Assembly (NCBI GenBank): GCA_024742355.1
Contig: JANSYM010000003.1
Span: 75,351-139,350, forward strand
DNA length: 64,000 nucleotides
Origin: Hyphomonadaceae bacterium
Lineage (GTDB): Bacteria > Pseudomonadota > Alphaproteobacteria > Caulobacterales > Hyphomonadaceae
Direction of reading: 5' to 3'
Made by a program: the position numbers and the translations under genes. Below are positions 19,736-64,000 of the stretch, one piece after another; position 1 is the first letter of the stretch; each line of letters opens with the position of its first letter. Below the pieces are notes generated by a model, which was not told the DNA's origin, did no database searches, and saw nothing but the letters and a program-made list of their open reading frames with translations.

Positions 19736-19817
19736 CCTCATCCTGAGCGAAGTCGAAGGACGAGGCGGGCTTTCAGGAAGCACGGCCCTTTATCCTTCGA
19801 CTTCGCTCAGGATGAGG
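19736..19817. repeat. REP-type perfect 25-bp inverted repeat
   Basis: CCTCATCCTGAGCGAAGTCGAAGGA (19736-19760) and its exact reverse complement (19793-19817). Confidence 0.9.
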
Positions 19818-20013: not shown

Positions 20014-20027
20014 TTGATCGCGATCAA
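20014..20027. promoter_or_regulatory. FNR/FixK-type box
   Basis: Perfect TTGAT-CGCG-ATCAA, 62 nt upstream of the SIMPL gene start. Confidence 0.6.
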
Positions 20028-48977: not shown

Positions 48978-51254
48978 ATGGCCCTTCTTCGCATTGCGTT
49001 TCTTAGCCTTATTGCCGTTCTGGCCGCATGGCTTCCAGCCCTCAGCCAGCCCGTCGATGGCGGACATGCCCGCGTCGAGCTGGTCAGCGAGCGCGCCCTG
49101 GCCGTTCCCGGCGAAACGGTCTGGTTCGGCCTGTCATTCGAGATCGATCCCAATTGGCACATTTACTGGCGCAATGCAGGCGATGCCGGGATTCCGCCGG
49201 AAATCACCTGGCGCGACGTGGGTGGGGTCGCGGCAGAGCAGGTTGGCGGATTTGCCTGGCCGCTGCCGGAGCTGCTGCCTGTCGTTCCCGGCCAGATCAT
49301 GGATTATGGCTATTCCGACCAGGTTGTTCTGCCCTTCATGGTGACGTTGCCGGACGATGCAGAAGGCCCGCTCTTGTTCGAAGGCGTCGCGGACTATCTG
49401 ATTTGCGAGGATGTCTGCATTCCCGAGAGTGCTGACATCCGCCTCTTATTGTCGGTTGGCGGCGCCCAGATTCCCGACCAGTACGGTTCCGACCTGATCC
49501 AGGCTTCCCTGGCGAGCGTGCCGCCTGAATTCTCTGGTGACGCGCGCCTGTCTGATGCCGGCGATGCCTGGGTTCTCTCCGTCGACAGCCCTGAATTGTC
49601 CGGCCTGCAGGGCAATGCGCGCTTCTTTCCATACAATCACGAAATCAAGCATGCGGCCGATCAGGCCGCGAGTTTCGGCCCCGAAGGGTTGCAGCTGCGT
49701 CTGACCCCTGACCGTGAGGGCGATCCGCTTCCCGAAACGATTGCCGGTGTGGTCAAGGTTGGCGAGACCGCGGTGGCGATTTCGGCGGACGCAGGTCCGG
49801 TCCTGCCCGGCACCAGCAGAGCGGGCGGCTTTTCGACCCAGGCCAGCGGCGCGGCAACCAGTTTGCCCGTTTTGATGGCGTTTGCGCTGATTGGCGGTTT
49901 GATCCTCAATCTCATGCCCTGCGTGCTGCCGGTCTTGTCGATCAAGGCAATGGGCGTGGTCTCGGCGAGCGCCAGTGGCCATGAACGCGAGGCGCGCGCG
50001 CACGGCTTGTGGTACGCAGCTGGCGTCCTGGCCAGTTTTGGCGCCCTGGCGGCGGCGGTGCTCAGCGTCCGCGCCGCGACCGGGGTGGCGATCTGGGGCT
50101 TCTGGCTGCAAAATCCGATCCTGGTCACGGCCCTGATCCTGATCATCTTCCTGATCGGTCTGTGGCTGCTCGGCATGTTCGAACTGGGCACCTCGGTCCA
50201 GGCCGTCGGATCAGACCTGGCGGCCAAACAGGGCAGCGCTGGCGCATTCTTCACCGGCGTTCTCGCAGCTGTTGTCGGCGCGCCATGTACCGGACCCTTT
50301 CTCGGCGCGGCGCTAGGAGCCGTGATGCTGCAGCCATCGATCAATGTCGTGCTCGTCTTGCTGACCATGGGCCTCGGCATGGCCTTGCCTTTCCTGGCGC
50401 TGAGTTTCCTGCCAGGGCTGCAGAAAATGATCCCCAAGCCTGGCGCCTGGATGGAGACACTGAAACAAGTCTTTGCGTTCCCGATGTTCCTCACTGCGGC
50501 CTGGCTGCTGTCTGTGTTGGGCGCGCAGGCCGGAAACCGAATGGTGGCCATGGTGGTCGCGGGTGCTGCGCTGATCGCGTTTGGAATTTGGGCGTTAAAA
50601 GCAGCCGGACAGGGTGCAAAGTCAATTCTTCTCTCCATTCTTGGGCTTGCCGTGATTGTCCCGGCGTTCGGGCTGATCACCGCGATGAGTGGTCCTCAAG
50701 TGGACGTAAGCGGCGCTGTATTCAGCATGCTCTGGATCGTTGCCTTAGTTGTCGCATTCGTTGGTGTCGCGCAGTCGAGCGCAAATGTGTCTGCGCAGAC
50801 GGCCCGCGGCTTGGCGGGTCTCGCGATCATTGCCGGGTTGGTCTGGCCGCTCGCGCAGGCGCGAACCGCACTAACGACAGAACGCCCGAGCACCGCCTAT
50901 GCCGCAAAATACGAAACCGAGGCCTGGTCGCCGGAACGGGTCGCCGAGCTGACCTCCGAAGGTCGCGCAGTGTTCGTCGATTTCACGGCTGAATGGTGCG
51001 TGACGTGCCAGGCCAATAAGTTGCAGACCCTGCAGACCCGGCCCGTCACAGAAGCCTTCGCCGCCGGCAATGTCGCCTTCCTGGTGGCCGACTTCACCAA
51101 TGGCGACAAGACCATCGCCCTTGAGCTGCAAAAACACAATCGCGCCGGGGTTCCGATGTATCTCTGGTACGCGCCGGGCGAGACCCAGCCTCACGTCCTC
51201 CCGGAATTGTTATCTATCGATCTTGTAACAGGACTTGTCGACGGCGCGGGTTAG
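48978..51254 (+). CDS. dsbD: Protein-disulfide reductase DsbD/ScsB family
   Basis: WHIYWRN.GD.G, ICEDVCIP, LMPCVLP, APCTGPFLG and DFTAEWCVTC motifs. Confidence 0.9.
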   Translation: MALLRIAFLSLIAVLAAWLPALSQPVDGGHARVELVSERALAVPGETVWFGLSFEIDPNWHIYWRNAGDAGIPPEITWRDVGGVAAEQVGGFAWPLPELLPVVPGQIMDYGYSDQVVLPFMVTLPDDAEGPLLFEGVADYLICEDVCIPESADIRLLLSVGGAQIPDQYGSDLIQASLASVPPEFSGDARLSDAGDAWVLSVDSPELSGLQGNARFFPYNHEIKHAADQAASFGPEGLQLRLTPDREGDPLPETIAGVVKVGETAVAISADAGPVLPGTSRAGGFSTQASGAATSLPVLMAFALIGGLILNLMPCVLPVLSIKAMGVVSASASGHEREARAHGLWYAAGVLASFGALAAAVLSVRAATGVAIWGFWLQNPILVTALILIIFLIGLWLLGMFELGTSVQAVGSDLAAKQGSAGAFFTGVLAAVVGAPCTGPFLGAALGAVMLQPSINVVLVLLTMGLGMALPFLALSFLPGLQKMIPKPGAWMETLKQVFAFPMFLTAAWLLSVLGAQAGNRMVAMVVAGAALIAFGIWALKAAGQGAKSILLSILGLAVIVPAFGLITAMSGPQVDVSGAVFSMLWIVALVVAFVGVAQSSANVSAQTARGLAGLAIIAGLVWPLAQARTALTTERPSTAYAAKYETEAWSPERVAELTSEGRAVFVDFTAEWCVTCQANKLQTLQTRPVTEAFAAGNVAFLVADFTNGDKTIALELQKHNRAGVPMYLWYAPGETQPHVLPELLSIDLVTGLVDGAG

Positions 51255-51297
51255 AGTAGGTTACAGCTGTAGCTGGATCAATCTGGGAGCCTTATCC

Positions 51298-51945
51298 ATG
51301 ACGAGTTTTACACGCCGCAATCTCGGCCTCGCGGCGGGCATGGCCACTGCCGTCGCGCTGACCGCTGGCGCAATGATCGCCTTCTCCGCCAATGCGACAC
51401 CGATTACGGGCGAGGCGGCCCCGGGGTTCACCAACGCTGTGACCGCCACCGGTGACACGATCTCGCTGTCTGATTTTGCTGGGCAGACCGTGGTCATGGA
51501 ATGGACCAATCATGACTGCCCGTTCGTGAAGAAGCACTATGCCGAGCCGGTGACCAATATGCAGACCCTGCAGTCTGAGGCGACGGCCGGTGGCACCGTC
51601 TGGATCCAGGTCATTTCCTCGGCGCCGGGCAAGCAGGGCTATCTCGAGGCCGAGGCCGCGCTGGCCAAGAATACAGAGCGCGGGGCCGCGCCGACTTACA
51701 CCATTCTCGATCCGAGCGGCGATATTGGCCGGGCATATGATGCTAAGACGACGCCGCACATGTACGTCATCGAAGGCGATGGCGAGCTTGCCTATGAAGG
51801 CGCGATCGACTCGATCCGCTCCGCCCGCGTCAGCGACATTGGCAAGGCCACCAATTATGTCACGGCCGCGCTCACGGCTGTCACCGCAGGCGCAACGCCA
51901 GACGTGACCAGCTCCAAGCCTTATGGCTGCTCTGTGAAATATTAG
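51298..51945 (+). CDS. Exported redoxin (AhpC/TSA, peroxiredoxin-like)
   Basis: TRRNL signal; EWTNHDCPFV, YDAKTTPHMY and PYGCSVKY motifs. Confidence 0.85.
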   Translation: MTSFTRRNLGLAAGMATAVALTAGAMIAFSANATPITGEAAPGFTNAVTATGDTISLSDFAGQTVVMEWTNHDCPFVKKHYAEPVTNMQTLQSEATAGGTVWIQVISSAPGKQGYLEAEAALAKNTERGAAPTYTILDPSGDIGRAYDAKTTPHMYVIEGDGELAYEGAIDSIRSARVSDIGKATNYVTAALTAVTAGATPDVTSSKPYGCSVKY

Positions 51946-51970
51946 AGCCGGGCGCCCGAACCTGCACCAA

Positions 51971-51998
51971 GCCGCTCTGGTCTCCGGAGCGGCATTTT
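51971..51998 (+). terminator. Probable terminator
   Basis: GCCGCTC...GAGCGGC stem followed by ATTTT. Confidence 0.6.
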
Positions 51999-52052
51999 GT
52001 TGTTGCGCCGGACACATCGCGACATGGCCGGTTCGCCAAGTTGATTGGTGAA

Positions 52053-52077
52053 TGGTGGTTCGGGGGAGACTTGAACT
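52053..52077 (-). other. tRNA 3'-end duplication (att site)
   Basis: Minus strand reads AG-TTCAAGT-CTCCC-CCGAACC-A-CCA: T-loop, 3' T-stem, 7-nt acceptor strand, discriminator, CCA; no pairing 5' half upstream. Confidence 0.8.
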
Positions 52078-52126
52078 TGCGATTAGATCCCGTTTCATAT
52101 AGCCCTTCAGCATAAGAAGCTAATCT

Positions 52127-52149
52127 GGTCCCGCCTTCGGTCCCGCCTT
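52127..52149. repeat. Tandem 11-bp direct repeat, possible integrase arm-type sites
   Basis: GGTCCCGCCTT at 52127-52137 and 52139-52149, 50 nt inside the att core. Confidence 0.55.
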
Positions 52150-52282
52150 ATCGCAACTCCTTTTGGGAATTTCAAACCGCGCTCGTCGCGTTGGAATATG
52201 CGGGGCCGGTCGAAGCGCCAATCAAATTCTCTCAGAGCAATTTATATCAAGATGACCGTGTGCCTGTGCGATCTGCAATGGT

Positions 52283-52296
52283 TTGACCCAGATCAA
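52283..52296. promoter_or_regulatory. FNR/FixK-type box
   Basis: TTGAC-CCAG-ATCAA (one mismatch), 64 nt upstream of the cytochrome c gene. Confidence 0.65.
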
Positions 52297-52360
52297 TGCA
52301 TTTGATGTCATGTCGAGACACCCTGAAGCGCATCGAGCTTTGATCGTTGAGGGTAGTTTC

Positions 52361-52831
52361 ATGATACGTTTTGCAAATTTGGGCCTCATTACAATGTTTG
52401 GGGTGGTAGGTCTCATTCCTGTTCTTTCCGCTTGCGAGCGACCACAATCTGCCGGTTTCACATTGCCCGAAGGCGATTCCGAACGCGGCAAAGAGACCTT
52501 CATGGATCTTGGTTGCACGTTCTGTCACACCGTCGATGGAGTGGAAGGCCTGCGCACCGATATGCCGGAGCCTGCACGGACAATCGTCCTCGGTGGAGAA
52601 AAGTCGCGCGTGTACACGTATGGTGAGCTCGTAACTTCGATCATCAATCCGTCTCACAAGATTTCTCAACCGGAGTTGGATGATGTTGTGGATGCTGAGG
52701 GCAAGTCTCAAATGGTCGTCTACAATGACATTATGACCGTTACTGAGATGACGGACCTGGTGACGTTTCTCGAGGCAAACTACTCTCTGGAACCTTATCG
52801 CCCTTCAGCCTATCCAGCCTATGGTCCTTGA
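52361..52831 (+). CDS. Monoheme cytochrome c lipoprotein
   Basis: Lipobox LSAC; CTFCH; SIINPSH; distal QMVVYND. Confidence 0.85.
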   Translation: MIRFANLGLITMFGVVGLIPVLSACERPQSAGFTLPEGDSERGKETFMDLGCTFCHTVDGVEGLRTDMPEPARTIVLGGEKSRVYTYGELVTSIINPSHKISQPELDDVVDAEGKSQMVVYNDIMTVTEMTDLVTFLEANYSLEPYRPSAYPAYGP

Positions 52832-52884
52832 AAAGATGACGGAGCCGCAAATCGATTGAGACGTCTGATGGGAAGGTTAATCGC

Positions 52885-53412
52885 ATGAAGCTGTTCGTGG
52901 GGTATGCATCTAAAGAAGGCCAATCGCGCAAGATTGCCCGACACATTGCGGATTTTGCATTTGATACCGGGCATTCAGTGGAATTGCAGGCTGTGGCGGA
53001 CGATAGCGGGGTCGAGCTTTCTCGCTTCGATGCTGTCATTCTCGCGGCGCCTATTCATACTGGCCATTATCCGAAACCGTTCGCTCAGTTTGTGTCCGTG
53101 CATGCTGACACGTTGAACACGGCGCAAGCGCGGTTCGTTTCGGTGTCTCTGGCTGCGGCTGGACATGATGCTGAGGATTGGCGGAGTCTGGAGCACATAG
53201 CGGATGACTTCAAACAAGCGACAGGATGGAGTCCGACCGACACAAAACACGTCGCAGGAGCCTATATGCCCTCCAGGTACGATATCCTGACCCGTTTCAT
53301 CATGCGCCGGATCGTGTCCCAAAAGGACCCGGAAGCCAATCTGGGAGAGGACAAGGAATATACTGATTGGGGCGATCTTAACGCATGGATCAATAGCTGG
53401 CTCAATCCGTAA
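52885..53412 (+). CDS. HemG-like flavodoxin (possible protoporphyrinogen oxidase)
   Basis: YASKEGQSRKIA, APIHTGHY, FVSVSLAA, VAGAY..SRY..L.RFIMRRI and EYTDW motifs. Confidence 0.82.
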   Translation: MKLFVGYASKEGQSRKIARHIADFAFDTGHSVELQAVADDSGVELSRFDAVILAAPIHTGHYPKPFAQFVSVHADTLNTAQARFVSVSLAAAGHDAEDWRSLEHIADDFKQATGWSPTDTKHVAGAYMPSRYDILTRFIMRRIVSQKDPEANLGEDKEYTDWGDLNAWINSWLNP

Positions 53413-53415
53413 GGG

Positions 53416-54645
53416 TCAGATGAGGCCGAACGAAAACAGTGCGACGCAGGTCACGAGCCCGGTGACTGGAACAAAAATCGGAACTTGAAACCCAATCGCT
53501 GTTCTCTGTTCGCGCCGCTTCAGAAAAATCAATGACAGGTTCACGATCGCGAATATAGCCAATGCGACTTGGGACGTAAGTTCTGCGAGGCGTTCGATGG
53601 CTACAAACAGGCTGAGCGCAAGGACAATCGCGGCGACCAGGATGGTAGCCACCAGAGGGGTCTTGGTTTGCGGGTGAATGTAGCCGAGTTGGGCCGGTAA
53701 TTGGTTCTGTTTAGATAGACCATATATCACGCGTGAAGACATGATCATCTGAATGAGAACGCCATTCAGGGTCGCGACAGACGCGATCAAATTAAACCCG
53801 CCTCGCAGAGCGGGCGAAGCGTCCGTGAACATCAGGTTCAAAGGTGCCGCAGATTGCGATAGTGCGTCGATTGGTACGATCAAAACGACCACAGAAACGA
53901 CAGCAAGATAGAGCAATGTTGCCAGAACCAGCGTCCAGATAATTGCGCGTGGCATGTTGCGATCGGGGTTGATCGCCTCTTCAGCAATGTTGGCTAGGTC
54001 TTCAAATCCGACAAACGCAAAGAAGGCGAGCAGGCTGGCGGCGCCGATACCTAACCATACCTGGCCCTCCAGCGGCGGAACAAGCCGGTCGAGCTGCAGC
54101 AGGATTTCGGGATTTCCGCCTAGTCCATACATAAGTACGAGAAGCAATCCGATGATTTCCAGAACTGTGAACACCGCCGCCATCGTCACAGATTCCAAAA
54201 CGCCTAATATGGCGACGCCACCCAATACAAAAGCAATGAGGAAGGTCAGAATGCGCGAATCAACGCTTGTCAGATCCTGCAAGTAAGCACTCGCGCCGAC
54301 CATGATCGCCGATGAGGAAATGATCCCGACCGAAGCCACCAGCAAGCCGACCAATAAGGCAATCCGTTTTGATCGAAGGCCCGCGTCGACATAGGCAGCC
54401 TCTCCGGCGCTTACCGGAAATCTGGCACTGAGTTCAGCATAGGAAAATCCGGTGAACGAAACCACGATCGCAGCCGCCAGGAATGCAACGGGTGCGTAAG
54501 TACCAGCGTGCGCGGCGGTCGTGCCGACCAACACGTAGATTCCCGCTCCAACGGTGACTCCAAGACCGTACAGAATGAGCAAGGGGAGAGTCAGGCGACG
54601 GCTTAGGTGTGGTTCGGTTGAGTTGGGGGTTTGGGGTGTCGACAT
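53416..54645 (-). CDS. APC family amino acid permease
   Basis: LYGLGVTVGAGIY, YAELSARFP..AGEAAY and FAFVGFED motifs; about 12 TM helices. Confidence 0.9.
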   Translation of the reverse strand: MSTPQTPNSTEPHLSRRLTLPLLILYGLGVTVGAGIYVLVGTTAAHAGTYAPVAFLAAAIVVSFTGFSYAELSARFPVSAGEAAYVDAGLRSKRIALLVGLLVASVGIISSSAIMVGASAYLQDLTSVDSRILTFLIAFVLGGVAILGVLESVTMAAVFTVLEIIGLLLVLMYGLGGNPEILLQLDRLVPPLEGQVWLGIGAASLLAFFAFVGFEDLANIAEEAINPDRNMPRAIIWTLVLATLLYLAVVSVVVLIVPIDALSQSAAPLNLMFTDASPALRGGFNLIASVATLNGVLIQMIMSSRVIYGLSKQNQLPAQLGYIHPQTKTPLVATILVAAIVLALSLFVAIERLAELTSQVALAIFAIVNLSLIFLKRREQRTAIGFQVPIFVPVTGLVTCVALFSFGLI

Positions 54646-54701
54646 CTGCTTTCATCCATTGGCCTGAAGGATTGTCATCGGATGCGACGGCAATTGCGTC
54701 A

Positions 54702-54736
54702 TTGATGCGCATCAAATTCGAATTGATGTCGATCAA
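54702..54736. promoter_or_regulatory. Two perfect tandem FNR/FixK-type boxes
   Basis: TTGAT-GCGC-ATCAA (54702-54715) and TTGAT-GTCG-ATCAA (54723-54736). Confidence 0.8.
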
Positions 54737-54964
54737 AACCGTTGGCCCTGTGTGCTCTAGGTTAGATGTGTTGCTGTGAAATATCGTGGCTATTCCTGCG
54801 TCCTTCTTACGCAATCATGGGGTTCGCTCCATCACGGTGGCTTGCAGGCAACACAGGCGCACGTGGCGGATTGGTGCACGAAGCAAGCGAATCCCACCAG
54901 CTCGCCGCGTGCCGCTCTGGTGACGTGTGTTTTGGATGCGGAGTGCAATCCCATCGAGGCGAAA

Positions 54965-55417
54965 ATGAGTGTGACTGGGCTTAGTAAGATTGATGACACC
55001 GTGCACACTACCAATGTGTGGTTGAAGCAAATCATGACTGCGTGTCACTGGACGGAACGTCAGGATGCTTATCGCGCGCTGCGCGTAACCCTGCATGCGT
55101 TGCGAGATCATCTTCCAATTGAATCCGTCGCGCATCTTTCGGCGCAACTTCCGACGCTTATTCGGGGCCTGTTTTTCGAAGGCTGGAGGCCTGGGCGAGC
55201 CGAATCCCCCGGACGCGATCTGGAGTCTTTTATCCAGCCCATCGAGGACGCGTTTGATCGGTATCCCGGTGTCGATTCTGAACATGTGGCGCGCGCGGTT
55301 TTCGAAACAATGTGCAGCCACATATCGGAGGGCGAAGTGCATCATGTTGAACGCGCTCTACCGCGACGGGTCCGCCGAATGATCGTCTCCGAAGACCAGG
55401 AACTATCGTCCCGCTGA
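54965..55417 (+). CDS. DUF2267 domain protein
   Basis: TVHTTNVWL, AYRALRVTLHALRD.L, HLSAQLP.LIRG.F.EGW motifs. Confidence 0.88.
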   Translation: MSVTGLSKIDDTVHTTNVWLKQIMTACHWTERQDAYRALRVTLHALRDHLPIESVAHLSAQLPTLIRGLFFEGWRPGRAESPGRDLESFIQPIEDAFDRYPGVDSEHVARAVFETMCSHISEGEVHHVERALPRRVRRMIVSEDQELSSR

Positions 55418-56296
55418 TTTGATGATCGCTTTTGAAAGTTGGTTGGCGATTGCGATTGTTGAGTTTGGACCGAGCACCGTTTCAGTCGCCGCCACTGCCT
55501 GCACGCCCTCTGAGGCGAAGCTTTCGAGAACTTCAATTGCTGCAAGACAATGTGTTGCGCAGCAAAGGATCTTAGCGTCCGGATAGGCCAGATGGCATCG
55601 GCGCACCGTTTGAAGCATCGTCGCGCCTGAAGAGATAATATCATCAACGAGAACGATTGTATGTTCGTTGAAGTCGGTGAGGTCGGGAAGAGAGATTTCC
55701 ACATCCCGATCCCCGCGGCGTATCTTGCGCAGCGTTTGATATGGTGCCTGCAGGTGTCCCGCGATTTTGCGCACCCATTGCTCGCTTTCGATGTCGGGCC
55801 CGACAATCATCGATTTCCCAGAGTGGCTGGAAATCCACCCAGCGATAGGCTCATCTGCGGATACACAATACGTCGGGATCTCGTAAACTTCATCGAGCGT
55901 TTGGTAGCGATGGAGATGAGGATCAACGGTGATCAGGCGGTCGAAGTTGTGTGAGATTAGTTTGGCAAAGGCTGCCGCACTGACGATTTCACCAGGATTG
56001 AACGCGATGTCCTGGCGCATATAGGGCAGGTAGGGTGAAACCAGCGTCACGCTCTTCGCGCCTTGTTGGCGGAATCCGTTCGCAAGCATCAATACGTGCA
56101 AAAGCTTGGCATCGGGATTATCCAGCCTGGCCACCAGGAAAATGTCCTGATTTTCGACAGTGTCGAGAATTCGAAAAAGCGTTTCACCGTCCGGAAACCG
56201 GTGCAGATCGAGTCGACCGAGGGGAATGCCGGATGCGCCGGCAATGTCTTCGGCAAGAGACTGCGCGCCCGCGCCACTGAAAATCATCTTGGTCAT
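55403..56296 (-). CDS. Ribose-phosphate diphosphokinase-like protein (accessory, phosphorylase-associated type)
   Basis: HRFPDGE, PYLPYMRQD, VDPHLHR, GPDIESEQW and VDDIISSGAT (PRPP-binding loop). Confidence 0.88.
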   Translation of the reverse strand: MTKMIFSGAGAQSLAEDIAGASGIPLGRLDLHRFPDGETLFRILDTVENQDIFLVARLDNPDAKLLHVLMLANGFRQQGAKSVTLVSPYLPYMRQDIAFNPGEIVSAAAFAKLISHNFDRLITVDPHLHRYQTLDEVYEIPTYCVSADEPIAGWISSHSGKSMIVGPDIESEQWVRKIAGHLQAPYQTLRKIRRGDRDVEISLPDLTDFNEHTIVLVDDIISSGATMLQTVRRCHLAYPDAKILCCATHCLAAIEVLESFASEGVQAVAATETVLGPNSTIAIANQLSKAIIKSAGR

Positions 56297-57807
56297 GGCG
56301 ATGTCAGTTCCACGATTCCCGGATTCGCGTCGATGAAGTCGAGTGCGTATGCCAATTCGCCCGGGGATTGGGTGTGCAGTGTAAAAAGAGCGTCACCCTG
56401 CGCTACCGCGTCTCCCAAATAGACATGTAAGTCGATCCCCGCCGCCACATCCTCGGGCGCGCCAGCCAGTTTTGCAGCTTTGGCAAGCCGTCGATTGTCA
56501 ATTCGCGCCACTCGGCCAGGGCGCGGCGCTATGATGGCGCGCTGGTGTTCGGCCACGGGCGGCGACGCGAGCCGTCCCTGGGCTTTGCAAATGGCTTCGA
56601 AATGGGCGTTCGCCGCTCCGGAAGCGAGGGTTTCTCGAGCCCGTTGCGTGCCTTGCGCAGGTTTCGCCGCGCCGGTGAGCTCCAGCAGAGCCCCAGACAG
56701 CACGCAGGCGCGGTCGCGTAATTCCGGTGGTGCATTAGCTTCGTTTCTCAGCACTGCCAGAACGTCGCGCGCTTCCAATGACGGTCCTATGCCGCGGCCA
56801 ACCGGTTGGGTTCCATCTGTGATCTCGACGCTGATCTTGATATCGAAGTGGGCGGCGATGGCTTCGAAGTGTTGGCGAAGTGACTCCGCGGCTTCAGCGC
56901 TGCGAACTTTTGCGGTTGGGCCAACTGGGATGTCGATGACCAGATGAGTGGCACCGGCAGCGATCTTCTTCGACAGCACCGACGCAATGAGGGGACCTTC
57001 GCTGTCCAGGTCCAGCGCTTTCTGGATGCGAATGAGCGTGTCGTCGGCAGGACTGAAATTGACACTCCCGCCCCAGACAAAACATGCCTGTTCCCGCGTC
57101 AGGACGGCCTTCATGTCGGAGAGGGATAAACTCACATTTGTAATAGTACTCATTGTGTCCGCCGTACCCGCTGGCGAGGTGATCGCCTTCGACGATGTCT
57201 TCGGCATGGTCAGGCCGTTTGCGGCAGCAATTGCGACAACGATTGGCGTTGTGCGATTTCCCGGCAGCCCGCCGACACAATGCTTGTCAGCGATAATGCT
57301 TGCGTCCCAATCCAAACGGCTGCCGGAATCAACCATGGCGCGGGTCAGAGCGATGGTTTCATCATCGTCCAGAATACGCGCTGAACAGGCGGTTACAAAT
57401 GCCGTGAGCTGTATGTCAGAATACCGGCCATGGACGATGTCATCGATGATTTGCCGGGCGGTGTTCTCCGTCAGCTTTTGCCCGAAAATCTTTCCCCGGA
57501 CATCTGCAAAAGACGACAGAGGAGCCGGATGCGATATCGTAAGCGTCTCCGCGCCTTCAAGGTGCAAGCGTTTCCAGGCAATCTCGGACAGTCCGATCTC
57601 CTCCGCGCCAACCAGATTGCTCGTCACGTAGTGCAAAGTGGCGAAGATCTCGGCGGCGCCGTTCTTCAACAAGACACGCGAATGGGCTGAAAACCCTTCG
57701 GATTTGCACGCGGCACAGTCTTGCTGCACGAATGCAATGGCTTCGTGTTGAGAGTCTATTCCGAGTCGCCGCGCCGTCAGAACCGGTCGTCCATCATCAG
57801 TGCTCAT
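56293..57807 (-). CDS. Archaeal-type NMP/AMP phosphorylase homolog (TIGR02645-like thymidine phosphorylase family)
   Basis: Extra N-terminal domain (RRLGID...CKSEGF); DKHCVGGLPGNRTT, KTSSKAITSPAGTADTM, SVLSKK and QPVGRGIGP motifs. Confidence 0.88.
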   Translation of the reverse strand: MSTDDGRPVLTARRLGIDSQHEAIAFVQQDCAACKSEGFSAHSRVLLKNGAAEIFATLHYVTSNLVGAEEIGLSEIAWKRLHLEGAETLTISHPAPLSSFADVRGKIFGQKLTENTARQIIDDIVHGRYSDIQLTAFVTACSARILDDDETIALTRAMVDSGSRLDWDASIIADKHCVGGLPGNRTTPIVVAIAAANGLTMPKTSSKAITSPAGTADTMSTITNVSLSLSDMKAVLTREQACFVWGGSVNFSPADDTLIRIQKALDLDSEGPLIASVLSKKIAAGATHLVIDIPVGPTAKVRSAEAAESLRQHFEAIAAHFDIKISVEITDGTQPVGRGIGPSLEARDVLAVLRNEANAPPELRDRACVLSGALLELTGAAKPAQGTQRARETLASGAANAHFEAICKAQGRLASPPVAEHQRAIIAPRPGRVARIDNRRLAKAAKLAGAPEDVAAGIDLHVYLGDAVAQGDALFTLHTQSPGELAYALDFIDANPGIVELTSP

Positions 57808-59168
57808 GTCAGTTCCACGCGTTCATTATGCTCGGCAACTGTGACATGCCAGTTTTTCCGTTCTTCAATCAGGTGTCGTAGACTATCGGCAGCGTCGGGT
57901 TCGCCGTGGACGATGAACGTTTCTCTGGGAGGTTTGGAAAACCCGTTCAGCCATTCCAGGATCTCGGTTCGATCTGCGTGCGCGGACAACATGTGCAGGT
58001 TCGCGACTTCTGCTCGAACGGGATAGTATTGGCCATGAATTTTGATTTCCTGCGCCCCCTCTAGCATATGCGCTCCGCGCGTTCCGCCAGCTTGGAAACC
58101 CGCGAAGAGAATGGTGTTCCGGGGATCCCCCGCATAAGCCTTCAGATGAAAGAGAATACGACCACCTGTGGCCATTCCGCTTGCGGAAATGATGATTTTC
58201 TGTTCGCTATCAAGGTCCAGAGACTTTGAGTCTTCGGTGCTGCGTGTGAACGTGGCGAGGCCGCATGCCGCTCGCGCTTGCTTGGGCGTCAGGCGCAAAC
58301 CGTCTGTGTGGCGACAGAAAATGTCGCTGGCATCTATCGCCATTGGACTGTCCAAAAAGACCGGTAAATCGGGAATCTCCTGGCGCCCTATCAAGTTGCG
58401 CAAGTGAAATAACAACGCCTGCGCACGTCCGACGGCAAAAGATGGGATGATCACTGACCCGCCGCGCTTGGCGGTTCGGTTGATGATTTCTGCCAACGCT
58501 TGCTCCGCGTCCATGTCAGGGTGATCGCGATTGCCATAAGTCGACTCAAGGAACAGATAGTCCGCTGCGACGATTTTTGCGGGTCTATCCATGATAAGAT
58601 TGTCGAGCCGGCCGAGATCGCCCGAAAACACGAGTTTTTTGCCGTCAGCGTCAACTTCAACAATGGCGGCGCCGAGGATGTGACCGGCAACGTGGAACCT
58701 GATCCGGATGTCCTTTGTCACCTGCACCCAGCTGCCAAACTGATGAGACTGGAGGCTTGGCAATGCCATTTCAGCTTGTTTTTTGTCATATAGCGGGCGC
58801 GCTGGTTTGTGCCGCGTGTAGCCGCCCCGATTTGCGGCTTTCGCCTCTCGCTCTTGCAGGTATCCGCTATCGAGCCACAGAATATCGCACAGCGCGCGGG
58901 TGCCTTCCGTGCAGTGTACCAAGCCGGTGAATCCGTTCGCGACCATGACCGGGACGTAGCCCGAATGGTCCAAATGGGCATGCGTCAGGACAACCGCATC
59001 AATATCTTTTGGGTCGATTGCGAGTGGTTTCCAATTGCGCAGGCGCAACTGTTTGTAGCCTTGAAACAGACCACAATCGACCAGGATGCGCTGTGTGTCG
59101 ACTTCAATCAGAAACTTCGAACCCGTGACGGTGCCGGCGCCGCCGAGAAATCGAACAGACAGATTCAT
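57804..59168 (-). CDS. MBL-fold beta-CASP ribonuclease-like protein
   Basis: THAHLDHSG, AGHILG, SGDLG, ESTYG, PSFAVGRAQ, SASGMATGGR, SAHAD and VHGE motifs. Confidence 0.92.
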   Translation of the reverse strand: MNLSVRFLGGAGTVTGSKFLIEVDTQRILVDCGLFQGYKQLRLRNWKPLAIDPKDIDAVVLTHAHLDHSGYVPVMVANGFTGLVHCTEGTRALCDILWLDSGYLQEREAKAANRGGYTRHKPARPLYDKKQAEMALPSLQSHQFGSWVQVTKDIRIRFHVAGHILGAAIVEVDADGKKLVFSGDLGRLDNLIMDRPAKIVAADYLFLESTYGNRDHPDMDAEQALAEIINRTAKRGGSVIIPSFAVGRAQALLFHLRNLIGRQEIPDLPVFLDSPMAIDASDIFCRHTDGLRLTPKQARAACGLATFTRSTEDSKSLDLDSEQKIIISASGMATGGRILFHLKAYAGDPRNTILFAGFQAGGTRGAHMLEGAQEIKIHGQYYPVRAEVANLHMLSAHADRTEILEWLNGFSKPPRETFIVHGEPDAADSLRHLIEERKNWHVTVAEHNERVELT

Positions 59169-59230
59169 CTGGCGTGCCTCCCAACAAACAGTTGCAGCTT
59201 ACGAATTACGAACCTAGCAGAAAATTTCGC

Positions 59231-59244
59231 TTGATCAGGATCAA
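59231..59244. promoter_or_regulatory. Perfect FNR/FixK-type box in a divergent promoter
   Basis: TTGAT-CAGG-ATCAA between the beta-CASP start (59168) and the cytochrome c start (59302). Confidence 0.8.
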
Positions 59245-59301
59245 TTCTGCGGGTCGAAAAACCGGTATCGCGTCATCACACAACCGTAGGAGGCGAAGCG
59301 A

Positions 59302-59640
59302 TTGAAACTTGTATTTACATCTTTCGGGATTGCGCTCGCAATGGCCGTCGCATGCGCGCCTGCGCCTGAAGCGGTGTCCGGTGAAGCCTCTGGTGAGGTT
59401 TTGGCCAAACGCCTGTGCGCGGGGTGTCATGCTGTGGGTGTCGACGATGCAAGTCGACATTCCAGCGCGCCGCCATTTCGTGCCCTGTCGGATTCCTATC
59501 CGGTGGAATACCTGGCAGAAGCGTTGGCAGAAGGCATAATCGTCGGCCATCCCGACATGCCGGTTTTCGAAATGAGTCCGGGCCAGATCGACGGCTTTTT
59601 GCTGTATCTGGAAGATCTCCAGGAGGCGCCGTCAGACTAG
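59302..59640 (+). CDS. Small monoheme cytochrome c lipoprotein
   Basis: AGGAGG RBS and TTG start; lipobox AVAC; CAGCH; GHPDMP (distal Met). Confidence 0.88.
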   Translation: MKLVFTSFGIALAMAVACAPAPEAVSGEASGEVLAKRLCAGCHAVGVDDASRHSSAPPFRALSDSYPVEYLAEALAEGIIVGHPDMPVFEMSPGQIDGFLLYLEDLQEAPSD

Positions 59641-59676
59641 GTGAGCCCCGACGCGGCGACGATTTTCCCGAGTGAT

Positions 59677-59690
59677 TTGAACTGGATCAA
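59677..59690. promoter_or_regulatory. FNR/FixK-type box
   Basis: TTGAA-CTGG-ATCAA (one mismatch), 56 nt upstream of the USP gene. Confidence 0.65.
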
Positions 59691-59746
59691 TTCCAGACCT
59701 CCAAAAAGGGATCAGAGTACCGGCACGAAAGATGGAGGCTTCGGAT

Positions 59747-60622
59747 ATGAGTTACAAGACACTTCTCGCGCCGTTGCAGTTCAAAGAAACGGCTGAAGCG
59801 ATTATGAGCAGCGCTATGGTGGTGGCGAATGAGTTTGGCAGCCATGTGCATGCCAAACATGTCAGAGCACCCTTTGTTGCCTTCGCGCCTTACGCCTATC
59901 ACACGATCAGCATGGCGACGGCGCCTGTCATGGTGTCGGAACAGTTTGATGCTGCAACAGCCGAACATGCCGCAGCACTGAAGAGCATTTTTGAGTCCGA
60001 GTGCAAACGTAGGGCGCTGCGCATTGTGCCTTTCAGCGAAGGTTGCGCCAGCCCGAAGAAGTCGGCTTCCTGGAGCGACACAACCGGTCCGGTTATCCAG
60101 AGCATGGCTCACTTTGGCCGGGTCTGCGATTTGTCGATCGTTACCCTCCCGGACAAGGGCAATGAACGGCGGGACACGCCGCTGTTTGAAGGGCTTCTCA
60201 TGGCTTCTGGGCGCCCCGTTCTTGTGGTTCCCATCGATGGGCTAAAACGGATTCCGAAGCGGGTTCTCGTCGCTTGGGACGGTAGTTTGCCAGCGACCCG
60301 AGCCCTGCAACTGGCCTTGCCGCTGCTGGGCGCCGCCGATCAAGTGTTTGTGGCGACGGTTGGGGAAGTTGATTTTGGAATGCCCGATGCAGAAGACGCC
60401 GCCTCTTTTCTCGCCAGTCACGCGATCAATGCAGAAGCCCGAACTGTGGACTGGCCGAAGAAGCCGATTGCCGAACGCCTGATGAACCAGGCGGAAGCGA
60501 CAAATAGTGAGCTCATCGTGATGGGTGGATACTCTCACACGCGTCTCTATGAAACGCTCCTGGGCGGTACAACGCGCCACATGCTGGCGCACGCCGACCG
60601 CGCGCTGTTCCTCGCGCATTGA
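59747..60622 (+). CDS. Universal stress protein (tandem domains)
   Basis: SGRPVLVVP, VLVAWDGS..ATRAL and LIVMGGYSHTRL.E..LGGTTR motifs. Confidence 0.92.
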   Translation: MSYKTLLAPLQFKETAEAIMSSAMVVANEFGSHVHAKHVRAPFVAFAPYAYHTISMATAPVMVSEQFDAATAEHAAALKSIFESECKRRALRIVPFSEGCASPKKSASWSDTTGPVIQSMAHFGRVCDLSIVTLPDKGNERRDTPLFEGLLMASGRPVLVVPIDGLKRIPKRVLVAWDGSLPATRALQLALPLLGAADQVFVATVGEVDFGMPDAEDAASFLASHAINAEARTVDWPKKPIAERLMNQAEATNSELIVMGGYSHTRLYETLLGGTTRHMLAHADRALFLAH

Positions 60623-60625
60623 ACC

Positions 60626-61369
60626 GTGTCTGGCGTTCAAACTCTCGAAGCAAAACCTGCGTCAGCGGACGTGTTACTCTCTGTGCACGGTCTGACCAAG
60701 GTCTATCAAACCGGCGCGGTAAAGGTGCATGCGCTGCGCGGAATCGACCTTACAATCGAAACCGGTGAACTCATTGTTTTGCTTGGCGCTTCGGGAAGCG
60801 GAAAGTCGACCCTGCTCAACATCATTGGCGGCCTGGACTCGCCGACGACGGGACGTGTTTCTTTCCTTGGAGAAGATATAACCGAGTATGGACCTTCGGC
60901 ATTGACGCAGTTTCGACGCGCGCATGTCGGGTTCATTTTCCAGTTCTACAACCTGGTGCCCAGTTTGACCGCGCGAGAGAATGTCGCGCTGGTGACGGAA
61001 ATATCGAGTAATCCCATCGCACCGGAAGAGGCGTTGAGAATGGTTGGCCTAGGCGAGCGCATTCATCACTTTCCGGCACAATTGTCGGGCGGAGAGCAAC
61101 AACGGGTTGCTGTTGCGCGCGCGATCGCCAAACGTCCCAACCTGCTGCTTTGCGATGAACCCACAGGCGCGTTGGACAGCAAAACTGGTGTGCAGGTCCT
61201 TGAAGCCTTGAAAACCGTGAACGAAGAGCTCGGCGCAACCACGCTGATCATTACGCACAATATCGGCATTGCTGAAATGGCGGACCGGGTCATCCGACTG
61301 TCCGACGGGATGATTTCAGAAGAGCGACAAATGGGGCGACGGCGATTGCCTTCGGAGCTGTCATGGTAG
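60626..61369 (+). CDS. ABC transporter ATP-binding protein (LolD/MacB-like)
   Basis: [34 protein letters not shown] and ITHN motifs. Confidence 0.93.
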
Positions 61370-63738
61370 GGTTTTTGTCAGCTCTCGATCGGAAACTTCT
61401 ACGCGATCTGTGGCGGCTGCGCGGGCAGGGGCTCGCGGTTGGAATCATTATCGCCTGCGGCGTCGGAATTATGATTATGGCGCTGGGGTCACTCGCTTCC
61501 CTTCAAGAGAGCCGCAGTACCTATTATGAACGGTATCGGTTCGCGGATGTCTTTGCGGATGTCAAACGGGCTCCCAACCACATTCTCGCTGACGTGCGCG
61601 ACATTCCCGGCGTGAAATCAGCTGAAACAAGAATCACCCGAATTGTTACGCTGGACATCGAAGCGCTGCGAGAACCTGCGAATGCGCAACTGGTGTCGTT
61701 GCCCAATGAAGGGCGACCGATCCTCAACGATCTTATTCTGTACGAGGGTCGATGGCCGGATCTGTTGCGGACCGAAGAAGCCATTATCAGTCGCGCATTT
61801 GCTGAGGCGCACGACTATCATCCCGGCGATCGTGTTCGCGCAGTCTTAAATGGTCGCGCCCAGGACATCGAAGTTGTCGGCATTGGCGATAGCCCTGAAT
61901 TTGTCTGGACCCTCGGCATTGGCAGCCTTCTGCCAGACGACAAGCGATTTGGCGTGTTCTGGATGCGCCGGCAATCGCTAGAGAGGACCTTCGAACTCGA
62001 TGGCGCGTTCAACAGCCTGACAGTGTCGTTGCTGCCGGGTGCAATTGAACAAGACGTCATTGATCAACTGGACCGATTGCTGGCGCCTTATGGGGCGATC
62101 GGAGCGTATGGCAGAGACACTCAGTTTTCCAACGCCTTTGTTGAATCTGAGATGGGACAGATGGTGGCGATGGCGCGGATAATTCCGCCGATATTCCTGA
62201 TCGTATCAGCGTTTCTGATCCATGCCATCCTGTCTCGCCTGATCGCGGTGGAACGCCAGCAAATTGGATTGCTCAAAGCGTTTGGATTCACCAACCGCGA
62301 AGTCGCCAGCCACTACATCAAGATGGCTGTGGTGTTGAGCCTGTTCGGTGTTCTGGGTGGCATCTTGATCGGGCGGCAATTAGCGCGGCTCGCAACCCAT
62401 ATCTATTCCGACACGATGCGGTTTCCCGAGATCATTCAAGTGGTGGATTCAACGGCTTACGCGAGTGGCACGAGCGCGGCGATATTGGCTGCCATACTGG
62501 GGGCACTGAGCGCGGCGCTCAAAGCCGCAAGCCTGAAGCCAGCAGAGGCGATGAACCCGGCGCCACCCACGATTTATAAACGCGGCGGCTTGATTCCGGC
62601 TTGGGTAGCGTCGCGCCTCGACGAGCCGACCCGAATGATCGTTCGCCATATAACGCGGTGGCCTGCCCGCGCGGCCATGACGATGTTCGGCATCGCTGCA
62701 TCCATGGCCCTTCTGGTCGGAACTCTCTTTGCCTTCGATTCAACCGAGGAAATGATCGAAACGATCTACTATCGCACCGATGTTTTTGACGCTGCGGTGA
62801 CCTTCGCCGACACCAAGGACTATGAATCGGTATCTGAGCTGAAGCGTTTGCCTGGTGTTTTGGATGTTGAGCCAATTCGGGATGTGTATGTTCGATTCCA
62901 TCACGGGCTTCACACAGAGCGAGGATCGATCACGGCAATCCAGGTCAGATCAGAATCTAAACGACTAATAGATGCGGAAGGGCGGGTTGTCGGCGTCGCA
63001 GAGACGGGGCTGACTTTATCCTCGCGGCTTGCAGAGATGCTGGATGTCGGGATCGGTGAGTGGGTGACCGTCGAGGTTTTGGAGGGGCGCAGGCCTGTCG
63101 TCGAACTTCCGGTGACGGCCATAGTCGAAGAGTATATCGGCTACGCCGCTTACATGAACCTCGAAGAGATCGGGCGCCAACTGGGTGAAGTCCGGATCAT
63201 TTCTGGCGCCTATCTAAAACTCGACCCGGATCAGTCAACGGCGTTCAGCGACGCCGTCCTTGATCGCCCGCAAGTTGCGAGTGTCGCTTTGCGATCGGCG
63301 GTTATCGACACATTCAACGAAACGCTGGAAGAGACCATCTCGATCATGATGACAATCTACTCGCTAATCGGTGGTGCGATCGCGGCGGGCGTTGTCTATA
63401 ATGCGGCTCGAATATCGCTGACCGAACGCGGTCGAGAGTTGGCCAGCCTGCGCGTGCTTGGATTTACACGGGGAGAGGCGGCTTACATCCTCCTTGGAGA
63501 ACAAGCCTTGCTGGTTTTGGTAGCGATTCCGGTAGGGGCCCTTTTAGGGGCTGGATTCGCGCAATTGATCGTAATTGGCATGTCCACAGATCTCTACCGT
63601 GTACCCTATGCAATGGCACCGTCTACACGAGGATTCGCGGCCATCGTTGTTTTGATCGCATCGATTGGCGCCGCCGCGCTTGTTGCCCAGCGCATCCGCA
63701 ATCTTGATCTCATCGAAGTCCTTAAAACCCGGGAGTAA
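61363..63738 (+). CDS. FtsX/MacB-like ABC permease with duplicated module
   Basis: [21 protein letters not shown] and [14 protein letters not shown] motifs. Confidence 0.9.
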
Positions 63739-63742
63739 ACCT

Positions 63743-64000
63743 ATGTCGCGCACTCGTATCGTCATTTGGAGCGTGATTGCGTTTTTTGTCTTCCTGGGCG
63801 GTCTCTGGGCTTTCTGGCCACGTGCGGTGCTGGTCGACATGACGCCAATCAGCGTTGGGCATATGGAGGTCGCTATCACAGAGGAAGGGGAAGCTAGGGT
63901 GCGCGACCTCTTCGTTGTCTCGTCGCCCGCTGCGGGATATCTGAATCGAATTGAAATCGACCCTGGTGAGTGCGTTTCCGCGGGCGAGACGCGATTGGCC
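63743..64000 (+). CDS. HlyD/RND periplasmic adaptor subunit (partial, runs off the window)
   Basis: N-terminal TM; ITEEGEARVRDLFVVSSPAAGYL.RI...PG. Confidence 0.85.
   Translation, partial: MSRTRIVIWSVIAFFVFLGGLWAFWPRAVLVDMTPISVGHMEVAITEEGEARVRDLFVVSSPAAGYLNRIEIDPGECVSAGETRLA

Follow-up and report, generated by a model that had tools for sequence, protein, structure and literature searches.

Which protein reads the FNR/FixK-type boxes that cluster in a stretch of bacterial DNA, and do the genes around them form a unit of their own? The question arises from contig JANSYM010000003.1 (assembly GCA_024742355.1) of a marine, Henriciella-like Hyphomonadaceae bacterium, which we take to be a phycosphere bacterium from a family described as aerobic; the stretch of 64,000 nucleotides (nt) that was analysed is called the window hereafter. 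An initial annotation had noticed five boxes of the type TTGAT-N4-ATCAA in the right-hand part of the window and had proposed a horizontally acquired low-oxygen module, pre-wired to the FixK/FnrL network of its host. In the following we describe a 20.8-kb island that is bracketed by repeats of a tRNA-Met end and harbours these boxes, and argue that it is probably a single FNR/FixK-box regulon with a FixK-type regulator of its own.

The window ends inside the island, and the sequence continues on a public contig (L006, 21.5 kb), which was found through its FtsX protein. It matches window positions 51363-64000 with 100% identity and adds 8.9 kb; positions past 64000 are given as window equivalents. 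A pattern scan of the window found perfect boxes at 54702, 54723, 59231 and 20014, and boxes with one mismatch at 52283 and 59677. The five boxes between 52283 and 59677, within 7.4 kb, are those of the initial annotation, and the scan and the gene positions agree with it that three are perfect and all five intergenic. With the core box and the sites to the right of the window, the list is as follows:

52283..52296: box 1, TTGACCCAGATCAA, one mismatch, centre 71.5 nt upstream of the ATG (52361) of a cytochrome c gene
54702..54715: box 2, TTGATGCGCATCAA, perfect, centre 63.5 nt from the ATG (54645) of a permease gene
54723..54736: box 3, TTGATGTCGATCAA, perfect, 21 bp from box 2 and 84.5 nt from the permease ATG
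59231..59244: box 4, TTGATCAGGATCAA, perfect, common to two divergent promoters, 69.5 nt from the ATG (59168) of a beta-CASP hydrolase gene
59677..59690: box 5, TTGAACTGGATCAA, one mismatch, centre 63.5 nt from the ATG (59747) of a universal stress protein (USP) gene
20014..20027: core box, TTGATCGCGATCAA, perfect, centre 70.5 nt before the start (ATG, 20091) of a SIMPL/DUF541 gene
beyond the window: box TTGAGGAGGATCAA, between the iron alcohol dehydrogenase (Fe-ADH) and Host_attach genes
beyond the window: box TTGATGCGGATCAA, perfect, upstream of the last cytochrome c gene
beyond the window: weak site TTGACTTCGCTCAA, two mismatches, between the MgtC gene and a gene for a protein of 168 amino acids (aa)

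The number of boxes is far above expectation. Dinucleotide-preserving shuffles of the window gave 0.05 perfect boxes and 1.8 boxes with at most one mismatch, against four and seven observed, and on the island-bearing contig seven boxes of the latter kind stand against 0.96 expected. One perfect and 53 one-mismatch boxes were counted in about 1.0 Mb of chromosomal DNA from Hyphomonadaceae and relatives, and against this background the four perfect boxes of the island, which has three one-mismatch boxes besides, have a probability of about 8e-9. All seven fall into intergenic DNA, which makes up 2.1 kb or 10% of the island. An eighth island site carries two mismatches, keeps TTGA-N6-TCAA and is conserved in position. 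The eight sites lie in nearly all promoter regions of the island, several of them between divergent genes. A box-like site at 34948 (TCGAT...) lies within glyS and was taken as noise.

The position of the boxes relative to the genes is equally regular. The nearer box edge lies about 57-65 nt from the start codon at the window promoters, much as the initial annotation had described for every site (about 55-65 nt), with the exception of DUF2267, whose ATG (54965) is 235.5 nt away from box 3. The divergent gene at box 4, a second cytochrome c with a TTG start at 59302, is 64.5 nt from the box centre. Across the island, box centres are found 54-85 nt from start codons, and these distances fit predicted activator sites near -41.5 with leaders of about 15-45 nt. 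A sigma-70 consensus scan of the box-bearing intergenic regions found no promoter-like match, and terminators there were unremarkable; the lack of a sigma-70 match fits activator-dependent promoters, as a weak indication.

Furthermore, the boxes are kept in up to eight Hyphomonadaceae genomes, while the flanking DNA has diverged. Intergenic regions of the window were aligned with those of three relatives whose beta-CASP proteins are 81-87% identical (mean intergenic identity 64-67%), and in these alignments boxes 3, 4 and 5 form runs of 15-17 invariant columns: box 3 lies inside 17 such columns in four genomes, in an intergenic region with a mean identity of 67%, and box 4 inside 16, likewise in four genomes and with diverged flanks. 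Box 5 is identical at eight of eight related loci, mismatch and spacer included. Box 2 is confined to the two closest genomes, the window and L001, and is degenerate in L002 and L003. At box 1 the homology to L001, a Henriciella relative, starts exactly, and a counterpart of this box is located 61-75 nt upstream of a cytochrome c ortholog or paralog at seven other loci. Boxes 6 and 7, beyond the window, and the weak eighth site hold their position in five to eight loci. The distance from box to start is near constant over up to eight loci (61-75 nt for both large cytochromes c, 60-73 nt for beta-CASP, 57-67 nt for Fe-ADH and Host_attach, 52.5-55.5 nt for MgtC, and near fixed for the USP box as well), and the 4-nt spacer is often altered, for example at the far-end cytochrome c, between Fe-ADH and Host_attach, and at MgtC. 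Even non-consensus bases are conserved, namely TTGAA at USP, TTGAG at Fe-ADH and Host_attach, and TTGAG...GTCAA at MgtC. Operator sites under selection would show just this pattern. The boxes are genuine, occur well above chance and are maintained by purifying selection. That they are chance palindromes without function, for which the short length of the motif speaks and nothing more, is refuted by the shuffle and background statistics, the exclusively intergenic location and the conservation of position and sequence, and we give this explanation practically no weight.

As to the protein that binds them, the initial annotation had found no regulator gene in this part of the DNA, and this is true of the window: Pfam scans, which included 20 further open reading frames (ORFs), recognised neither a CRP/FNR gene nor a two-component system. 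The CRP/FNR regulator for which it had advised checking the rest of the island does exist, however, a short distance to the right:

66520-67230 (window equivalent), minus strand: FixK-type CRP/FNR regulator, 236 aa, about 2.5 kb past the window end

In this part of the island the HlyD-type gene is followed by an acetyl-CoA hydrolase/transferase gene and then, on the opposite strand, by the regulator; farther right are an iron alcohol dehydrogenase, Host_attach/baeRF, MgtC/DUF4010, the 168-aa protein without assigned function, two more small cytochromes c (the third and the fourth) and HSP20. In total the island comprises about 21 genes, including four for c-type cytochromes, and has no sensor gene.

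The regulator is composed of cNMP_binding, HTH_Crp_2 and Crp domains (Pfam). Its best NCBIfam match is the FixK model of Caulobacter, and its best solved relative is FixK2 of B. diazoefficiens (4I2O, E = 8e-31), with FNR and DNR much weaker. The recognition helix reads LTLETVSR, and the segment DIADYLGLTLETVSRMxNKLK is invariant in seven orthologs save for one M/L position; its E-SR residues are those that read TTGAT. The first 30 residues are variable in the seven orthologs and hold no Fe-S cysteine cluster, only one non-conserved cysteine, so that the protein cannot sense oxygen in the fashion of FNR, by way of an Fe-S cluster. Two further cysteines, C106 and C179, are conserved in six of the seven, and C179 is two residues off the oxidation-sensitive C183 of FixK2 (PMC9104804). 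In every arrangement the regulator gene follows a box-controlled gene (Fe-ADH or MgtC) in the same orientation. The terminator scan showed no terminator-like site separating the two, so positive feedback by read-through is possible.

With a FixK-type regulator on the island, the boxes need not be read by FixK or FnrL of the host, and in this respect the view of a module pre-wired to the host network has to be changed. We regard it as likely that the island protein reads them. Alternatively, a chromosomal FixK, FnrL or FnrN could serve all the boxes, the island regulator being redundant, auxiliary or otherwise employed. The perfect box at 20014 is in keeping with this: it precedes a core gene, SIMPL/DUF541, which lies downstream of argC and has GGAGGTG just 5' of its ATG, and the geometry is that of the island promoters, so the motif is in use outside the island too. 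Proteins of the FNR family with the E-SR helix, moreover, share one box, and in Sphingopyxis both FnrN and FixK act on Fnr boxes, FixK in an auxiliary role (PMC7713065). On the other hand, no host regulator was recognised within the 64-kb window, the helix of the island protein is nearly invariant, and the fixK-like gene stays with the cluster in six Hyphomonadaceae loci, all of them retrieved by means of that regulator. Wiring by the host alone therefore appears quite improbable to us; it is also compatible with an island regulon run by its own FixK-type protein, as both proteins may bind.

The connection to the host would more likely lie one level up. A conserved 25-nt element, CTACGTAGTTTTACGGGATTAAACC (also given as CTACGTAGTTTTAC), is situated on the minus strand at 15942-15966 of L006 (window equivalent 67304-67328). 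In six genomes, one of which has a different upstream gene, it precedes the regulator ATG by about 94-98 nt. The element resembles published FixJ sites, which are GTAMGTAG and GTAGTTTCCC (systematic evolution of ligands by exponential enrichment, SELEX), and TAAGTAATTTCCCTTA (fixK of S. meliloti) (PMC4999443). The second of these, exact or with one mismatch, is present 90-103 nt upstream of four sister Hyphomonadaceae fixK-like genes (P about 6e-6, with a background of 9e-6 per base), and it stands there in exact form, at the same distance, in sister loci L122 and L086. FixL-like and FixJ-like genes were found near a fixK-like gene, at 2-4.5 kb, at one sister locus only.

Taken together, these elements suggest the following cascade. 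A host system of the FixL/FixJ type would sense low oxygen and transcribe the island fixK, and FixK dimers would then bind the boxes and activate 10-12 transcription units. The products would be the four small c-type cytochromes, a HemG-like flavodoxin, a permease, an operon for RNase, nucleoside phosphorylase and PRPP synthase, USP and a MacB-type exporter, and further the Fe-alcohol dehydrogenase, acetyl-CoA hydrolase/transferase, Host_attach protein, MgtC and others. For the step from host FixLJ to island fixK, which is read from the DNA, we lean only slightly towards acceptance, and the nature of the signal as oxygen is suggested by analogy with other bacteria.

A different signal has to be considered. 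If the island regulator were of a Dnr/NnrR-like or other effector-responsive type, the regulon would answer nitric oxide, redox or other stress. Regulators free of the cysteine cluster include Dnr and NnrR, which bind to similar boxes; DNR (3DKW) is among the solved relatives of the island protein (E = 9e-15), and the conserved C106 and C179, the latter close to the position of C183 in FixK2, could be seen in this light. FixK2 and Caulobacter FixK are nevertheless far stronger matches than DNR, the island is devoid of denitrification genes, Bradyrhizobium and Burkholderia induce the homologous genes in microoxia, and the regulator gene has the FixJ-like element upstream. We consider such an effector-responsive regulon very improbable.

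The boundaries of the regulon coincide with those of a tRNA-associated segment, which we list by its two recognised parts in the window:

52049..52077, minus strand: left island boundary, the 29-bp sequence TGAATGGTGGTTCGGGGGAGACTTGAACT, a copy of the 3' end of tRNA-Met(CAT)
52078..64000: left 11.9 kb of the island, the remainder of the 20.8 kb reaching to about window-equivalent 72854

The core ends with a redoxin-family gene (51235-51945; Pfam Redoxin/AhpC-TSA) and a terminator-like hairpin that follows it at 51971..51993 on the plus strand, 56 nt before the tRNA-Met fragment. The 29-bp copy covers the T-loop, the acceptor arm and CCA plus 4 nt of tRNA-Met, on the opposite strand, and an exact repeat is located 20,806 bp to the right (window equivalent 72855-72883), 3 nt before the end of L006. 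ARAGORN found no whole tRNA in the window, only the tRNA-Met fragment, and in L010, L015 and L057 an intact tRNA-Met with the same 3' end is present downstream of the DsbD and redoxin-family genes; by inference, an intact tRNA-Met gene would lie at the right island end. The 52 kb to the left are made up of housekeeping genes with a guanine-plus-cytosine (GC) content of 0.605 (window 1-52048), about five points above that of the island (0.556 for 52078-64000).

The segment thus behaves as a tRNA-associated island, and the question is whether it was also acquired horizontally, as first proposed. This has been only partly shown. In favour are the tRNA-Met repeats, the low GC and the location of the cluster elsewhere in relatives: in none of about 45 Hyphomonadaceae loci with DsbD and redoxin-family gene do the 9 kb or so past the latter contain the cluster, and in five other genomes it is found at other places, in one complete genome 2.4 Mb from the DsbD locus. 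Against it stand the core-like identity of the cargo and the lack of a mobility gene. These two points also support a rival history, in which an old, vertically inherited Hyphomonadaceae cluster was moved by rearrangement and the tRNA-Met fragment is a relic of unrelated integrations at a hotspot. Cargo proteins are 81-94% identical to those of the Henriciella relative, that is, at least as similar as the core DsbD (81%) and redoxin-family protein (85%), for which 81-86% is the range. No integrase, excisionase or transfer gene is present on the island, where every gene is otherwise assigned or too small, nor was an integrase found beside the cluster, or between redoxin-family gene and tRNA-Met, in relatives. 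In each of the six genomes that were compared the cluster has a low GC content, which is consequently a property of the cluster and no sign of recent arrival.

The site itself is occupied by other DNA in two relatives. Longer tRNA-Met 3' fragments of about 48 nt are found at the same place after the redoxin-family gene in L008 (13125-13172) and L050 (13199-13246). One is followed by an RND efflux pump, the other by a PfkB kinase and an MFS sugar transporter, which indicates a general integration hotspot for different elements. Yet the 29-bp direct repeats are exact and enclose just this cluster, the crossover segment of about 25 nt, as compared with about 48 nt in L008 and L050, implies a separate event, the cluster is missing from the DsbD loci counted above, and the contig of a second organism joins the same tRNA segment to box 1 with another outer flank. 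On balance, an inherited cluster that was merely rearranged seems unlikely to us. With regard to the left edge, the contig of the second organism, from run X5, has the tRNA segment joined straight to 52283; the 205 bp between tRNA fragment and box 1 (52078-52282) are absent from this contig and have no counterpart in L001, and 12 nt are deleted at 52127 in a related strain from run X4. A plasmid origin was also considered, and a megablast of 52000-64000 against PLSDB gave zero matches.

Several observations weigh against one island regulon with its own FixK-type regulator. The regulator scores 135.5 bits with the Caulobacter FixK model, for which the equivalog cut-off is 300, and because of this large shortfall it was filed as FixK-type and is no proven FixK ortholog. 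The FixJ-like element has one to three mismatches to the published FixJ sites, two or three to the consensus sequences among them, and four matches of the latter quality were found in 21.5 kb where 1.3 are expected by chance; as stand-alone evidence its comparison with the composite FixJ consensus is not significant, and the case for it rests on conservation and position. No fixLJ genes were seen in the window or on the island. The island scan found no box at the regulator gene itself, at HSP20 or at the acetyl-CoA hydrolase gene, boxes 2 and 3 may be assigned to the permease or to DUF2267, and -10-like hexamers at the expected offset are weak. The public sequencing runs that came up were DNA runs, or RNA runs containing next to nothing of this sequence. 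Related genes also occur unboxed: H. jannaschiana VP2 (L124) has a related cluster of FtsX-HlyD, Host_attach, MgtC and the three-gene operon without a consensus box, and Henriciella MAG72 (L121) a second operon of beta-CASP, thymidine-phosphorylase-family (TP) and Prs genes without one. The operon is widespread, with all three genes at 43 of 80 diverse loci, and an upstream box occurs at two of the 80, which rules out that the operon is FNR-controlled everywhere. The wiring is hence lineage-specific, and gene content alone is no proof of FNR control.

Similar combinations are nonetheless scattered farther afield. A Marinimicrobia-labelled metagenome-assembled genome (MAG), two Rhodospirillaceae MAGs and Sulfitobacter have loci with a fixK-like gene, USP and many boxes, some of them also with beta-CASP, TP/Prs or HSP20, and three further loci anchored on TP, one of them from Rhodanobacter, show a weaker fixK-like match. 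As a tentative extension, which we hold to be possible but doubtful, the island could be a self-contained 'plug-in' regulon, in which one FixJ-type site ties about 20 genes to the oxygen sensor of the host. The cassette would travel in mosaic fashion, module by module, from one chromosomal site or genome to another among marine Alphaproteobacteria, with no integrase carried, and its RNase/phosphorylase/PRPP operon would salvage RNA for maintenance energy in oxygen starvation.

Loci of this type are known, and the island is a new example that holds nothing surprising for specialists of FNR and FixK. The lxa locus of B. cenocepacia (BCAM0275a-BCAM0323) consists of 50 genes whose induction at 6% oxygen ranges from 2- to 240-fold. 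An Anr/Fnr-like motif recurs at 17 of its intergenic points; the locus includes an Anr-related regulator of its own and is required for anoxic survival (PMC3721108, Sass et al. 2013). Both loci are compact, with many intergenic Anr/Fnr-like inverted repeats and their own CRP/Anr-related regulator, and at the level of protein families they share USPs, a small HSP, alcohol dehydrogenase, cytochrome c, a metal-dependent RNase and an ABC/membrane-fusion set. The lxa locus differs in its betaproteobacterial host, two-component systems, polyhydroxyalkanoate (PHA) synthesis, acetate kinase and class II ribonucleotide reductase, whereas only the island, with its approximately 21 genes and without a sensor, has four c-type cytochromes, the thymidine-phosphorylase/Prs pair and tRNA-Met repeats.

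A parallel to the three-gene operon is found in B. diazoefficiens, where bll3117-bll3116-bll3115 (TP family, Prs and metallo-beta-lactamase, MBL) are down 6.6- to 30.6-fold in a fixK2 deletion and have a FixK2 box at -74 (PMC9104804); the proteins of this operon, Host attachment proteins and USPs are induced by microoxia (PMC6515984). The two systems are alike in a FixK2-type regulator, the TTGAT-N4-ATCAA box and, for the island as a putative one, a FixJ-type element upstream of fixK. In both, the TP/Prs/MBL set forms a single operon, preceded by a box at about 70 nt, a likeness at family level, and Host attachment proteins, USPs and cytochromes c are regulon members, in the case of the island by prediction. 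In B. diazoefficiens, however, the members of the regulon are spread across a 9-Mb chromosome, with fixK2 next to fixLJ, whereas the island has everything packed together and no fixLJ; MBL comes first in the island operon and last in that of Bradyrhizobium, and the island regulator lacks an equivalent of C183, its cysteine being two residues away. Families of the island cargo are thus low-oxygen-induced and FixK2- or Anr-dependent in other bacteria (PMC9104804, PMC6515984, PMC3721108), and by analogy the same may apply here.

The nearest phylogenetic model is the FixLJ-FixK-FixT network of Caulobacter crescentus (Crosson et al. 2005, in PMC4999443 Table S1), in which fixK is a FixJ target and FixK boxes control respiratory genes. 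The targets there, terminal oxidases and heme enzymes, belong to core DNA; the island has no terminal oxidase. With tRNA-associated islands in general, the segment shares the tRNA 3'-end repeat, deviating GC, variable occupancy of the site and crossover lengths that differ with the cargo, but it is unlike them in having no integrase, excisionase or transfer genes.

If the predicted regulon is real, it would be a compact, sequence-defined oxygen-limitation regulon, with a regulator, eight operator sites and about 21 genes in 20.8 kb. If the proposed cascade is right, one island and one upstream FixJ site would suffice to link a survival programme to the sensor of the host, which would provide a simple model for the spread of regulons. 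The known range of the FixK2-linked MBL/TP-family/Prs operon and of the lxa-type gene set now includes marine Hyphomonadaceae.

Genes were assigned by Pfam and NCBIfam profiles, which bear out the cargo list of the initial annotation throughout, the flavodoxin being HemG-like though under the HemG cut-off. The island genes within the window are:

52361..52831, plus strand: monoheme cytochrome c, 156 aa, one CxxCH, lipoprotein-like signal
52885..53412, plus strand: Flavodoxin_5 protein, HemG-like (90 bits, NCBI HemG cut-off 142)
53416..54645, minus strand: amino-acid permease of the APC family (Pfam)
54965..55417, plus strand: DUF2267 protein, 150 aa
55403..56296, minus strand: ribose-phosphate diphosphokinase (Prs-like), third operon gene (NF005537, 330 bits, cut-off 322)
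56293..57807, minus strand: thymidine-phosphorylase-family protein, second operon gene (NF003338, 644 bits, cut-off 434)
57804..59168, minus strand: beta-CASP hydrolase of metallo-beta-lactamase fold (metal-dependent RNase type), first operon gene
59302..59640, plus strand: second monoheme cytochrome c, 112 aa, one CxxCH, TTG start after AGGAGG
59747..60622, plus strand: USP of tandem type, ATG after GGAGG
60626..61369, plus strand: ATPase of an ABC transporter (MacB type; Pfam)
61363..63738, plus strand: FtsX/MacB-type permease, 791 aa
63743..64000, plus strand: 5' end of a HlyD/YknX-type membrane-fusion gene (451 aa in full)

The flavodoxin gene is probably co-transcribed with the cytochrome c gene upstream, and the USP, ABC, FtsX and HlyD genes form a probable operon with USP first. 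The thymidine-phosphorylase-family protein is of the archaeal, AMP-phosphorylase-like type, and reaches 454 bits with the AMP phosphorylase model, below its cut-off of 535. A paralog of the 156-aa cytochrome c is encoded at the far island end (156/157 aa, 52% identity), and the two small cytochrome c paralogs contain a 34-nt direct repeat of 91% identity (L006 8168-8201 and 19908-19941), which stems from gene duplication inside the island. In five relatives a gene for a LonB-like AAA protease with a perfect box of its own (TTGATGCGCATCAA or TTGATCCCGATCAA) is located beside USP (L002 6685-9225 and matching positions in L003, L082, L083 and L084); the second cytochrome c, where present, lies between the two, and the island of the window is without the LonB-like gene.

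The starts at 54965 and 59747 were chosen by the orthologous start in L001, Shine-Dalgarno spacing and public gene calls. For USP, the ATG at 59732 was dropped in favour of 59747, and for DUF2267 the GTG at 54776, which is not conserved in relatives, in favour of 54965. The latter gene has a long untranslated leader (54737-54964, about 190-230 nt), part of which is conserved (CACGTGGCGGATTGGTG-CACGAAGC). No frame within these 230 nt is conserved in four genomes, so that a small ORF or an N-terminal extension was rejected, and an Rfam scan of the window, leader included, gave no family match.

Among the 20 further ORFs of the window, Pfam recognised argC, glyS, a class I tRNA synthetase of Glu/Gln type, PPDK, ETF-QO, a FAD-dependent flavoprotein of the fumarate-reductase/aspartate-oxidase type, a DEAD helicase, a TonB receptor and others. 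In the intergenic region between argC and the SIMPL gene, the 25-nt sequence CCTCATCCTGAGCGAAGTCGAAGGA also forms a perfect inverted repeat around a loop of 32 nt (19736-19760 / 19793-19817), which has the look of a repetitive extragenic palindrome (REP) or a miniature inverted-repeat transposable element (MITE).

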